From: an uncultured Gemmatimonadales bacterium
GTDB taxonomy: Bacteria > Gemmatimonadota > Gemmatimonadetes > Gemmatimonadales > Gemmatimonadaceae
Length of the DNA: 64,000 nt
Direction of reading: 5' to 3'
Assembly (NCBI GenBank): GCA_963850905.1
Contig: CAWKMU010000003.1
Span: forward strand, 704,001 to 768,000
This document shows, in pieces, positions 57,690-63,380 of the stretch. The notes beneath the pieces were generated by a model that ran no database searches, was not told the DNA's origin, and saw nothing but the letters and a program-made list of their open reading frames with translations. Numbering within the stretch: the first letter of the stretch is position 1; each line of letters opens with the position of its first letter. The translations under genes were made by a program, and so were the position numbers.

Positions 57690-59186
57690 TCAGTCGATCT
57701 CGAGGGGCCGGGGGTCCCGCGTCAGCTCGTCGACCACGAGGACGGCGTGCGCGTTGGTGTCCGCGACACACACCGCACGATGGACGGGGTCGTACGCAAT
57801 ACCGCCGGGCTCATGCAGACCACGCAACCAGGTGTCAACGCGCCGCGTGACCGGATCGACCCACTTCACCGCGTCGTTGTAGGAGTCCGCCACGAGCAGC
57901 CGGCCGCTCGGATGCGCGGCGATGCCCTGCGGATGTTGTAATCGGACGGCATCGCCGACACCGTCCTTGTCACCAAAATCGAACAGTCCCGTCCCGACGA
58001 TCGTGTGCACCTCGCCGACCGCGCGCCCCGCGCGCCGCTCGTCGGGGATGAAGGAGCGTGCCGCGCTCGATTCCGCGTCCACGAAATAGAGTCGGTCCCC
58101 ATCGCTCGCCGTCGTGATGCCCATGGGTTGCGCCAACAGCGCGTCACCCGCGGGGCCATCCGTGATGTCTTCGGCGCCCGTGCCCGCGGCGACCTCCGCG
58201 CCGGCGTGCGCTTCCTCACCACGCAGCGCCCAGAGCTGGTGAGTGCCCGCCATCGCGATGTACACCGTCCCGTCGAGCACGGCGACATCCCACGGGGATG
58301 ACAGCGCGCCGGCCCCCCGCTCCCGACGCGTGCGCAACTGGTGCCCCGTCCCGGCGACGGTCCGCACGACTCCCGCACTGATATCGATCGCGCGCACGGC
58401 GTGATTCTCGGTGTCCGCCACGAACACGGTGTCCCCCACAAAGGCGAGACCGTTCGGCGAGAAGAACCGCGGCGCAGCGCCGTCGACGAGGCCAGGCACG
58501 CCGTCGCCAAACGCGCGCGCATCCGTCAATCGCCACCCCCGGTTCTCATCTCCGGGCGTGAGCCGGCCAACGAGCACGCGATGATGCCCAGTGTCGGCGA
58601 TCGCCATCCGCTCACCCGACACGGTGACCTTGCCGGGGTATCGCAACATGCCGGGCGGGATCGCGCTGTCATCGAGCGGGAACGTGACCGGCACGCGGCT
58701 CTCGTCCAGCCCGACGGGTTCCGCGCTGATCAACCGTTCGATCAGTGGCTCCAGCATGGCGGCCGTGAACTCGCCCGCATGCGCGCCGAGCACTCTGCCC
58801 GCGGGGTCGATCAGCACTAGTGTGGGCCAGGCACGCACCGCGAACGCACGCCAGATACGGTACTGTCGGTCGTTGACGACGGGATGCGCGAGATCAAGTC
58901 GTCGCACCGCTTCGCGGATGCGAGGGGTCTCACGCTCCGTGATGTACTTCCCGCTGTGTACGCCGATCACCGCGACGTCCTGCGGGAACTTGTGCTCGAG
59001 CTCCCGCAACTGCGGGAGTACGTGCAGACAGTTGATTCAGCCGTACGTCCAGAAGTCGAGCAGGACGACTCTGCCCCGGAACTCATCCAACGTGAGCGCT
59101 CGTCCGCCCGTATTTATCCAGTCGACGTTTGTCGGAAACGGTGGAGCGCGGACGGCTGGCGTCGTCAGGATGTCATCAGCAGCCAT
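57690..59186 (-). CDS. Thioredoxin-like + NHL-repeat protein (NHLRC2/SOQ1-like), probable selenoprotein with in-frame TGA at 59037-59039
   Basis: Reads [24 protein letters not shown] in one frame; GVHSGK, AWPT and NHL repeats follow. Confidence 0.88.
59001..59018 (-). promoter_or_regulatory. Candidate bacterial SECIS hairpin
   Basis: mRNA CUCCCGC-AGUU-GCGGGAG begins 18 nt after the UGA; G followed by U in the apical loop. Confidence 0.7.
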
Positions 59187-60447: not shown

Positions 60448-61550
60448 GTGACCATACAGATCGGAATTCTGACGGAGACCACGCACCGCGAACGGCGAGT
60501 TGCCCTGGTCCCCGATGGCGTGCGCACGCTCGTGCGCGCCGGATGCGCCGTCCGCGTGCAACGCGGCGCTGGACGCGCCGCGTACGTCACCGACGAGGCT
60601 TACGCGGACGCCGGTGCGACGCTGTTGGACGACGCCGCGCAGGTGCTGCAGGACGTGGACGTCCTCGCCAAAGTGCAACCGCCGACGGCGCAGGAAATCG
60701 GCGCGCTCCATAGCGGCGCCGTCATCGTGTCGTTGCTCGCGAACACCCCGGTTGCCGACCTCGGTTCCGCGCTCACGCAGAGCGGCATCACCCTGTTGGC
60801 GCTGGAACGCGTGCCGCGCATCACGCGCGCCCAATCAATGGACGTGCTGTCGTCGCAGAGTACCGTCGCGGGATACAAAGCGGTCCTGCTCACCGCCGCC
60901 GAGCTGCCGCGCCTCTTCCCCATGCTCACCACCGCCGCCGGCTCGCTCGCGCCGGCCAAGGTCTTCGTCCTGGGCGCCGGCGTCGCAGGACTGCAGGCCA
61001 TCGCGACCGCCCGCCGCCTGGGCGCAGTCGTGAGTGCGTTCGACGTGCGCGCGGTCGCGCGCGAACAAGTCCAGAGTCTGGGCGCCACCTTCGTCGCGGC
61101 GGATGCCCTGAGCCAGGACGGAGAAGGCGCGGGCGGCTATGCTCGCGAGCAAACCGCCGATCAGCAACGCCGCACGGCCGACGCGATCGCGCGCCACGTG
61201 GCCGACATGGATGCCGTCATCACGACGGCGCAGGTCCCCGGCCGGCCGGCACCGCGACTCCTGACGGCCGACATGGTCAAGCGCATGCGACCAGGGTCCG
61301 TCATCGTCGACCTGGCGTCCGAAACCGGCGGCAATTGCGAGCTCACGCGCCCAGGCGAGACCGTCGAAGTCGGCGGCGTGCGGATCATCGGGCCCATCAA
61401 CCTGGCCAGCACGGTGCCGTTTCATGCCAGCCAGAATGTTCAGCCGCAACGTCGTCACGCTGCTGCGCCACCTGATCACCGATGGGGCCCTGAAAATCGA
61501 TCCGACCGACGAGATTGTGAGCGCGATGCTCGTCGGCGCGCCAGGTGTAA
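60448..61550 (+). CDS. pntAA: NAD(P) transhydrogenase alpha subunit part 1, frameshift near 61436
   Basis: ERRVALVP, RAQSMDVLSSQ and GAGVAGLQA; the true C-terminus MFSRNV...GV-stop is in the next frame. Confidence 0.9.
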
Positions 61551-61602
61551 GCCCTCAACCCTCGGCCGCTCAGTAGACCCACCGACCGCAGGAGGATATG
61601 GC

Positions 61603-61992
61603 ATGTCGAGTATGAGTCTCGTGCAGCTGACCATCACGATGACCGAGCTGTCGGTCTTCGTGTTGGCTGGCTTCCTGGGCTACCAGATCGTGACCAAGGT
61701 CCCGCCCCTCGTGCATACGCCGCTCCTGTCGGCCACCAACGCGATCTGCGGCATCTCGATCGTCGGCGCCCTGGTGGAAGCGGGCGCGCATCAGACGATG
61801 ATCAGCACCATCCTCGGCGTCCTCGCGGTCACCGCCGCGATGATCAACATCGTTGGCGGGTTCCTCATGACCGACCGGATGCTGAACATGTTCCGGCCGA
61901 AGCAGAAGACGCCGCCGGCCGCGCCAGCCGCCGCATCCGGCCTCTCGCCCGACGCCGTCGCCGGCAACGGGCGCGCACCCGGAGCCGACTGA
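61603..61992 (+). CDS. pntAB: NAD(P) transhydrogenase alpha subunit part 2
   Basis: GGAGG RBS; VHTPLLSATNAI and NIVGGFLMTDRMLNMF. Confidence 0.9.
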   Translation: MSSMSLVQLTITMTELSVFVLAGFLGYQIVTKVPPLVHTPLLSATNAICGISIVGALVEAGAHQTMISTILGVLAVTAAMINIVGGFLMTDRMLNMFRPKQKTPPAAPAAASGLSPDAVAGNGRAPGAD

Positions 61993-61995
61993 ACA

Positions 61996-63380
61996 ATGCT
62001 ACGCACGGTCTTCATCGAGTCGACGTACCTCGCCGCGTCCATCCTGTTCATCCTAGGCATGCGCAGTATGACGCGCGCCGAAGGCGCGCGTCGCGGCATG
62101 CAGCAGGCCATGGTCGGGATGTTGTTGGCGATCATCGGCACCCTGTTCAACCACAACATCATCGATTTCCGCTGGATCGCCGTCGGGCTGATCGCCGGCG
62201 CCGTGCTCGGGTATCCGCTGGGCGCGATGGTGCAGATGACCGCCATCCCGCAGGCGATTGCGGTATCACACATGTTCGGCGCGATTGCCGCGACGTTGGT
62301 CGGCGTCGCCGAGTACTACAATGCCGCCGGCCATGTGTCCTCCGGCATCATGACTGGCACTCGGATTCGAGACACTGCTCGGGTCGCTCACCGTCACCGG
62401 CAGCTTCATGGCGTTCGGCAAGCTGCAGGGCATCGTCATTGATCGGCCATTCACGTTCAGGGGACAGAATGCGCTGAACCTGTCGCTGTTTGCCGTGACG
62501 CTCGCGATCTTCGGCTACCTGGTCGTGACGCCCACGCATCCGCCACTCTTCTACGCGATGCTCGGGTTGTCGCTGCTGATCGGCGTCTCCATGGTGCTTC
62601 CGATCGGCGGCGCGGACATGCCGGTGGTGATCTCCCTGCTCAATTCGTACGCGGGCCTCGCGTCCGCCGCGACCGGATTCGCCATCGGCAACAACGTCTT
62701 GATCATCGCCGGCGCGCTCGGCGGCGCCTCGGGCTTCCTCCTGTCCATCCTGATGAGCAAGGCGATGAATCGGTCGTTCGCCAACGTCCTGTTCGGCGCG
62801 TTCGGCACGCCCGCAGTCGGCATCGGCGACCAAGACGGCGACCGGCCTCACCGTCCACCCGATTAGTGCGGAGGACGCCGCGATGCGACTCGCTTACGCC
62901 GGCGAAGTCATCATCGTTCCGGGCTACGGCATGGCCGTCGCCCAATCCCAGCACCAGGTGCGCGAGCTCGCGGAGCAGATCGAAAAGCGCGGCGGCACGG
63001 TGAAGTACGCGATTCACCCCGTCGCCGGTCGCATGCCGGGACACATGAACGTTTTGTTGGCCGAAGCGAATGTGCCCTACGAGCGCCTGTACGACATGGA
63101 GGAGATCAACGCGGAGTTCGATCACGCCGATGTCGCACTCGTCATCGGCGCCAATGACGTCGTCAATCCCGCAGCGCGGACTGACCGCGCGAGCCCGATC
63201 TACGGCATGCCAATCCTCAACGCTGATCACGCCAAGAGCATCATCGTCCTCAAGCGCGGCATGAACCCCGGCTTCGCTGGAATCGAGAACGAGTTGTTCT
63301 ACGATCAGAAAACCAGCATGCTGTTTGGCGATGCGAAGGCGAGTTTGACGAAGCTCGTCGCGGAAGTGAAGAACGTCTGA
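61996..63380 (+). CDS. pntB: NAD(P) transhydrogenase beta subunit, two apparent frameshifts
   Basis: IGGADMPVVISLLNSY, AMNRS, PGYGMAVAQ and HPVAGRMPGHMNV across three frames (junctions near 62355 and 62830). Confidence 0.92.

Follow-up and report, generated by a model that had tools for sequence, protein, structure and literature searches.

A predicted selenocysteine form of the NHLRC2/SOQ1-like thioredoxin-NHL proteins in an uncultured Gemmatimonadales bacterium

Arabidopsis SOQ1 (PDB 7DJJ/7DJK) and human NHLRC2 (6GC1) join a thioredoxin-like domain and an NHL β-propeller in a single chain and carry an xxINC motif. In the sections of the SOQ1 reports drawn on here, residues C431 and C434 are described as a redox-active pair (-274 mV; bioRxiv 2024.11.01.621559) that is required for function, with a C431S result (bioRxiv 2021.03.16.435614), and the C-terminal domain is described as receiving electrons from the thioredoxin domain and carrying methionine-sulfoxide reductase activity. 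Mammals require NHLRC2, a disease protein in humans, whose biochemistry the corresponding sections of the papers on NHLRC2/SOQ1 leave unsettled. Among bacterial selenoproteins, thioredoxin-fold families with a UxxC motif have been catalogued as ‘thiol-disulfide isomerase-like protein’ (PF13905/cd02966), ‘Prx-like thiol:disulfide oxidoreductase’ and ‘redoxin family protein’. The bacterial SECIS consensus, as set out in the relevant part of a 2026 review (PMC13188914), comprises a loop of 3-9 nt with a G in its first two positions, a stem of 4-16 bp, a minimum free energy ≤ -7.5 and a distance of 16-37 nt from the UGA.

The protein described here shares with the catalogued families a TlpA-type domain, a UxxC motif at the N-terminal cysteine, an in-gene SECIS and standard Sel machinery; unlike the representative sequences compared here, which are single-domain and carry other motifs, it consists of two domains. 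Like SOQ1 and NHLRC2, it combines the thioredoxin-like domain with the propeller and retains the xxINC motif, and unlike them it has a predicted selenocysteine in place of the second cysteine and glycine in place of the first, and is devoid of an nDsbD-like C-terminal domain, a HAD domain and any transmembrane or signal segment. The gene very likely encodes a selenoprotein of the thioredoxin-fold UxxC kind, made by the standard bacterial mechanism; the recoding mechanism itself is textbook.

The gene, its in-frame TGA and its genome

The gene, which comes from a soil bacterium, lies on the minus strand at positions 57690..59186 of the window, i.e., the 64,000-nucleotide stretch of DNA that was analysed. 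Its frame runs from an ATG at 59186 to a TGA at 57692-57690 and, with its only internal TGA (59039-59037) read through, encodes 498 amino acids. The assignment rests on the open reading frames, Pfam and a structure model; the start is the same in close relatives, and at the true stop codon (57690..57692) relatives end with TGA, TAA or TAG. The internal TGA (59037..59039) is codon 50, the predicted selenocysteine, in the translated context DFWTYG-U-INC. In the alignment it falls on the first cysteine of the NHLRC2/SOQ1 CxxC motif, which is C431 of SOQ1 and the second cysteine of CCINC, and the codon for Cys53 (59028..59030), the predicted resolving cysteine of UxxC, falls on C434. The literal CC(I/V)NC motif is absent (here G-U-I-N-C), and the redox pair is retained. 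Re-reading of the frame confirmed the preliminary description of this DNA, which had reported two same-frame open reading frames separated only by the TGA at 59037-59039.

The thioredoxin-like (TlpA-type) domain covers approximately residues 12-155 (58722..59153), as judged from the Pfam families Thioredoxin_8, AhpC-TSA and Redoxin and from the model, with P121 (WPT motif) and R96 as invariant alignment columns. The NHL β-propeller (approximately residues 180-498; 57693..58649), supported by Pfam, alignment and model, contains an invariant E459. The best Pfam hit is PF13905 (Thioredoxin_8), accompanied by NHL, and none of the NCBIfam models reaches its cut-off with the protein. The closest solved structures by sequence are SOQ1 (E 7.7e-85) and NHLRC2 (E 1.8e-77), and the predicted model (pLDDT 89) superimposes on them with TM scores of 0.88 (SOQ1, 7djk) and 0.86 (NHLRC2, 6gc1), so that the kinship proposed earlier, with the TGA on the redox cysteine, is borne out by sequence and fold alike. 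Conserved residues of the cleft between thioredoxin domain and propeller are present (Y48, R96, P121, E459); by our reading of the alignment Y48, R96 and E459 correspond to the SOQ1 interface residues Y429, R478 and E859. The chain has no signal peptide and ends after the propeller, with no C-terminal relay domain. A promoter scan of the gene region revealed no sigma-70 site and no clear terminator.

In the surroundings of 64 loci, the neighbours that recur most often are convergent in 18 loci, a frame which we take to be an aldo/keto reductase, and divergent in 15 loci, presumably a metallo-hydrolase. Among the 1,126 flanking frames of these loci no conserved co-oriented neighbour was found, as was likewise the case for seven genomes in the NHLRC2 paper, in the part cited here (PMC6107167). 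Downstream of the gene and on the same strand, the window encodes a DesA-like desaturase (just below the cut-off) and the oxidative-damage protection protein PRK05408 (56272-57647 (-)). Conservation of the desaturase/hydrolase/pntAB context hardly extends beyond the sub-clade of the window, and the desaturase/PRK05408 order is kept only there and at a few other loci; pntAB was consequently ruled out as a dedicated NADPH source, its context not being conserved. In the window (60448-63380 (+)), apparent frameshifts interrupt pntA and pntB, the PntB profile being spread over three open reading frames; these breaks are likely to be assembly indels, since cox1 genes are split as well.

The genome (G000; 4.49 Mb, 82% complete) contains selA (541.8 bits), selB (332.6), selD (374.9) and a tRNA-Sec(TCA) (69.1 bits), all above curated cut-offs; selD has an in-frame TGA of its own, and the tRNA-Sec gene lies about 100 nt behind it. 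The machinery that the earlier reading presupposed is thus in place. Because prfB (RF2, 493 bits) and tRNA-Trp(CCA) are also present, and the gene's own terminator is a TGA at a position where relatives have TGA, TAA or TAG, TGA still serves as a stop codon in this genome, whose only TCA tRNA is tRNA-Sec. In favour of recoding, selA exceeds the cut-off in 18 of 19 TGA-form genomes, compared with 9 of 17 cysteine-form genomes hand-picked from 59, and in all 10 further TGA-form relatives tested. In this group, however, it is common anyway (34 of 40 relatives), so that its presence discriminates little there.

Heme-copper oxidase genes are present in the genome, as are at least six candidate selenoproteins. 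Besides the present gene, a coding-score scan and family search yielded FdhA, SelD, a Bcp-like TxxU protein, a Prx-like UxxC protein and an APT-U-GEC protein, the labels of the last three being our reading of their motifs. The Prx-like candidate (G000:C3:1623924 (+), W-U-PFC) has a 6-bp hairpin, also with an AGUU loop, 16 nt after its TGA; the Bcp-like TKG-U, thioredoxin-like APT-U-GEC, SelD and FdhA candidates are located at G000:C3:2191485 (-), 2581683 (-), 3126738 (+) and 3161897 (-). The only paralogue in this genome is a membrane-domain and thioredoxin fusion with the motif FECYNC (L042:1414-2907 (-), G000:C3:19696-20118), DipZ-like by our reading.

Distribution of TGA and cysteine forms

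Twelve of 41 related genomes contain a full-length orthologue, seven with TGA and five with a cysteine codon. In a larger set of 105 distinct motif-bearing loci, pooled from searches none of which selected on the codon, with paralogues and a single locus lacking a motif match left out of the count, the same codon is TGA in 32 and TGC or TGT in 73, and TAA or TAG in none; the alternation between TGA and cysteine at this position is therefore established. The nearest named relatives are metagenome-assembled genomes of the Gemmatimonadales/Gemmatimonadaceae, and TGA forms appear in records titled Gemmatimonadota, Chloroflexota, Actinomycetota (Thermoleophilia) and NC10. The gene is patchy in the phylum of the window (20 of 401 genomes, 11 of them with TGA) but frequent in the class to which a Chloroflexia genome belongs, where it occurs in 102 of 301 sampled genomes and 82 of 103 matches contain one in-frame TGA. 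Among the best 30 loci of the latter class, the cysteine position is TGA in 28; each of these has AGTT at the same offset, and 23 read FWT[YF]C-U-INC. The position before the redox site is G or C in both forms (37 G and 35 C in 72 cysteine forms; 39 G and 19 C in 58 selenocysteine forms). These counts include six genomes marked as unpublished (G016, G433 and four of the Chloroflexia-class sample), on which no conclusion depends. The earlier suggestion that the novelty may lie in the lineage did not hold, given the wide occurrence of the selenocysteine form in the Chloroflexia-class sample and the probable appearance of its C-U variant in print.

Protein databases represent the family poorly. 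Of the best 120 protein hits, 110 begin after the motif and thus lack the active site, and the other 10 have GCINC; none contains U, although the search tool may omit U-bearing records, so that this count does not mean that RefSeq lacks them. The cut-short records start at several different codons and are gene-caller output; NCBI has given several of them the automatic name ‘alkyl hydroperoxide reductase’. One TGA hit stands apart: L246, a metagenome fragment of 29% GC, has TGA at both leading cysteines of CCINC and at a third site, and its frame is soon lost. By its looks it probably derives from a eukaryote that reads TGA as cysteine, and would not be a selenocysteine gene.

The hairpin and the reading of the TGA

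The codon is followed, within the coding sequence, by a SECIS-like hairpin (59001..59018) in the part that codes for LPQLRE. Its sequence, CTCCCGC-AGTT-GCGGGAG (59018-59001), forms a 7-bp stem with an AGUU loop (59011-59008), with a spacer of 18 nt after the TGA and the loop 25 nt from it; the perfect hairpin of the preliminary description was found at exactly this place. Judged by hand against the list given in the part of the 2026 review cited above (PMC13188914), it falls within every constraint of the published model (a 7-bp stem closed by a 4-nt loop whose second base is G, at 25 nt from the UGA and -16.1 kcal/mol), in agreement with the earlier reading of a SECIS-like element just 3' of the UGA with a G in its loop. 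Taken by itself, the hairpin is only modestly unusual, and this weak signal is not relied on: its fold has a z of -1.73, 12 of 200 shuffles of the single sequence being equally good; among 20,000 synonymous re-codings, 4.2% contain a Watson-Crick stem of the same length that carries a G-led loop; and a perfect 7-bp/4-nt hairpin lies at a similar distance from 270 of the 108,268 TGA triplets in the genome, with G at loop position 2 in 82 cases.

It is the comparison of homologues that carries the hairpin beyond chance. Within the 105 loci, of which 32 have TGA, the 12-nt hairpin core is exact in 26 of the 32 TGA loci and in none of the 73 cysteine loci. The remaining six TGA loci are without the exact core. 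Other or weak hairpins occur in part of the TGA forms, and in a few no clear stem can be made out in this register. The TGA loci number 142 in total, 110 of which come from a metagenome scan that selected on the TGA pattern. PQLR is encoded by 106 of the 142, and 104 of these 106 use the identical four codons, the expectation from the codon usage of this genome being 0.0115; the TGA-form codons occur in none of the four cysteine loci that encode PQLR. As read from these codons, the synonymous sites of the hairpin are frozen only in the TGA forms.

Covariation was assessed on 86 TGA rows (alignment A2, which includes L246, probably not a selenocysteine gene, and omits L229 and L239 for their different or frameshifted sequence). 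Paired cells amount to 86.9%, compared with 78.0% in shuffles and 35-64% in slid registers, and two-sided changes occur in 52 cells, with 0 of 500 shuffles as high; these cell counts are inflated by the relatedness of the sequences. Both-sided change is seen in only four of the seven stem pairs, which 230 of 500 shuffles match, so that there is no excess in this measure. The clearest covarying pair, columns 24/37 (CG 37, UA 23, GC 9, UG 7), joins a synonymous position to the first codon base on the opposite arm. The hairpin is thus conserved, covarying and confined to TGA forms, as the SECIS reading would have it.

Judging from these sequence comparisons, selenocysteine is almost certainly inserted at codon 50 by standard bacterial recoding; the machinery, the alternation of TGA with cysteine, the conserved hairpin and the unchanged contigs described below all support what the preliminary description had proposed. 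It is very improbable that the TGA is a true stop, in which case the gene would be a pseudogene or would yield a peptide of 49 residues and, after a restart, a protein lacking the active site. The many database proteins that start past the motif and the in-frame GTG/TTG codons 3' of the internal TGA would suit such a restart, but those records are gene-caller output with several different start codons, in records from all four titled groups the stop is without exception a TGA and sits at the catalytic cysteine, both sides of it are intact, and the hairpin codons are frozen only where it is present. A reassignment of TGA throughout the genome (to Trp, Gly or Cys), or low-level read-through with Cys or Trp, is still less probable: L246 indicates that a TGA at this site can have another cause, whereas the present genome has RF2, tRNA-Trp(CCA) and a tRNA-Sec as its single TCA tRNA, and the gene itself terminates in TGA where relatives use TAA or TAG. 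As to an assembly error, the fragmented pntA/pntB and cox1 genes might invite the suspicion, but it is already refuted and its probability is practically negligible. Contigs from runs of two studies span the TGA without any difference (X1, 58956-59172; X5, 58807-59119), X1, the best-matching run, possibly being the source sample, and three genomes of the same genus, at 79-93% identity, share the TGA.

Architecture, proposed reaction and relation to described families

An extra C-terminal domain with a cysteine pair, which aligns with the C-terminal domain of SOQ1, occurs in 45 of 70 cysteine forms and in none of 55 complete selenocysteine forms. A hydrophobic N-terminal stretch, scored in complete genes by a crude hydropathy test, is found in 49 of the 70 and 4 of the 55, respectively. 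These counts suggest that bacteria have an exported three-domain SOQ1-like form and a likely cytoplasmic two-domain form; selenocysteine is seen only in two-domain forms, to which the window protein belongs. Three selenocysteine forms (L216, L226 and L227) have apparent signal peptides, unlike the rest. A search of the present genome for a stand-alone copy of the SOQ1-type C-terminal domain (one query, no positive control, 82% completeness) found none.

Very probably the protein is a selenoenzyme of the NHLRC2/SOQ1 family that resides in the cytoplasm; its predicted role is that of a thiol-disulfide reductase. The observed starting point is the TGA at codon 50, the hairpin after it and the selA, selB, selD and tRNA-Sec genes. 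SelB with Sec-tRNA would recognise the AGUU-loop hairpin and insert selenocysteine, a step that the comparative evidence strongly suggests, whereas translation would stop at the terminal TGA, which has no hairpin. In the predicted NHLRC2/SOQ1-like fold, U50-x-x-C53 would lie at the cleft between thioredoxin domain and propeller. By weaker analogy, a protein bound in the cleft may be attacked by Sec50 at a disulfide or an oxidised thiol, and Cys53 may then release it as a selenenyl-sulfide, before the pair is re-reduced, presumably by a cytoplasmic NADPH/thioredoxin-type system. Since the C-terminal relay domain of SOQ1 is absent, electrons would pass directly to the substrate. This reductase role, by analogy, is the reading we moderately favour. 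That many bacteria are predicted to place selenocysteine on the second cysteine of CCINC is an argument for attack from this position throughout the family, in agreement with the C431S result for SOQ1.

Alternatively, with selenocysteine inserted all the same, the enzyme itself may reduce peroxide or methionine sulfoxide, the selenol doing the chemistry of the SOQ1 C-terminal domain. We regard this main alternative as unlikely, though it deserves consideration: the domain missing from all 55 selenocysteine forms is the one that aligns with the Msr-active domain of SOQ1, the one-query search found no separate copy, and several relatives bear the name ‘alkyl hydroperoxide reductase’. The names are automatic, however, the search had no positive control and an 82% complete genome, and the sequences are related, so that the 0/55 split may reflect few events. 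Moreover, 25 of the 70 cysteine forms, including those of the same genus, also do without the domain, and selenocysteine is therefore not required for its absence. Msr function by descent from SOQ1 was set aside, as the responsible domain is missing here.

Selenocysteine and cysteine interchange at least six times in a tree of 130 rows, in which the selenocysteine site and the hairpin-coded residues were masked, and a single-origin clade of all selenocysteine forms was rejected (p-AU 1.9e-6, 30 hand-picked rows). Five cysteine forms of the same genus are sister to the clade of the window (support 100), inside otherwise selenocysteine-bearing Gemmatimonadota branches. Four of the five still encode PQLR, with codons that break the hairpin, and their genomes retain selB (5/5) and selA over the cut-off (4/5). 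This clade likely represents one reversion from selenocysteine to cysteine with decay of the SECIS and retention of the machinery, and another such reversion would be the simplest reading of G305; the direction depends on rooting with distant cysteine forms and on fast tree methods. A likely reversion within one genus that left the hairpin-coded peptide behind, together with a genome that combines heme-copper oxidase genes with at least six selenoprotein candidates, contrasts with the view of a 2026 review, in the part considered, that such changes are rare in bacteria and concern mainly FdhA and SelD, and that aerobes seldom keep selenoproteins.

We compared the family with published catalogues. 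The term NHL is absent from the main text of PMC9312934, PMC13188914, PMC13326102, PMC5029168 and PMC1976440, in the portions covered; UINC and FWTY are absent from four deep-Sep supplements, and NHL likewise from the deep-Sep tables, as name or motif (PMC12013277). No matching named entry appears in the parts considered of deep-Sep Table S1 or AEM 2026 Table 1, and there was no hit over an NCBIfam cut-off. Literature searches returned no paper on a selenocysteine form of the thioredoxin-NHL family. A 2022 preprint (Haft and Gwadz) quite likely names the family in one clause, as a family of CU redoxins to which WP_012872293.1 is related, in a passage that is silent on NHL repeats, NHLRC2/SOQ1 kinship, hairpin and distribution. 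The C-U forms of the Chloroflexia class (23/28) fit this clause, as does the NCBI name ‘redoxin domain-containing protein’ for the full-length MBI4239248.1; the form in the window is G-U. The match rests on motif and naming, WP_012872293.1 not being among the 10 clusters looked up. Its accession range presumably belongs to a Chloroflexota isolate.

What makes the gene worthwhile, in our view, is the tie to NHLRC2/SOQ1, the extent of mis-annotation (the active site is missing from 110 of the 120 closest database proteins), the split in architecture and the likely reversion, in a family that is absent from the catalogues compared and was probably glimpsed before. The small two-domain bacterial versions, with matched selenocysteine and cysteine forms at 65-67% identity, could serve for substrate trapping. 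A broader proposal is offered tentatively, and we consider it rather doubtful as a whole: the selenocysteine-containing, cytoplasmic, relay-less proteins would be a very common, functionally distinct branch of the NHLRC2/SOQ1 family in bacteria of soil and sediment, in which the selenol reduces its substrate directly in the cleft and which may expose the core reaction of human NHLRC2, which would switch from selenocysteine to cysteine within one genus while the machinery is kept, and which would share its AGUU hairpin with a second, uncatalogued, exported thioredoxin family.

The metagenome loci contain a second TGA family of thioredoxin-like proteins, about 175 residues long, with an N-terminal signal-like stretch and the motif EFWTYG-U-INC. 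It accounts for 54 of the 110 metagenome loci (L154:1286-1810 (-), L160:1424-1942 (+) and 52 more). No NCBIfam cut-off is reached by this family; cysteine homologues exist, the motif is missing in 43 of its best 120 hits, and two hits are named from Methylomirabilota. The same 12-nt hairpin core is present at the same offset in 43 of the 54 loci.
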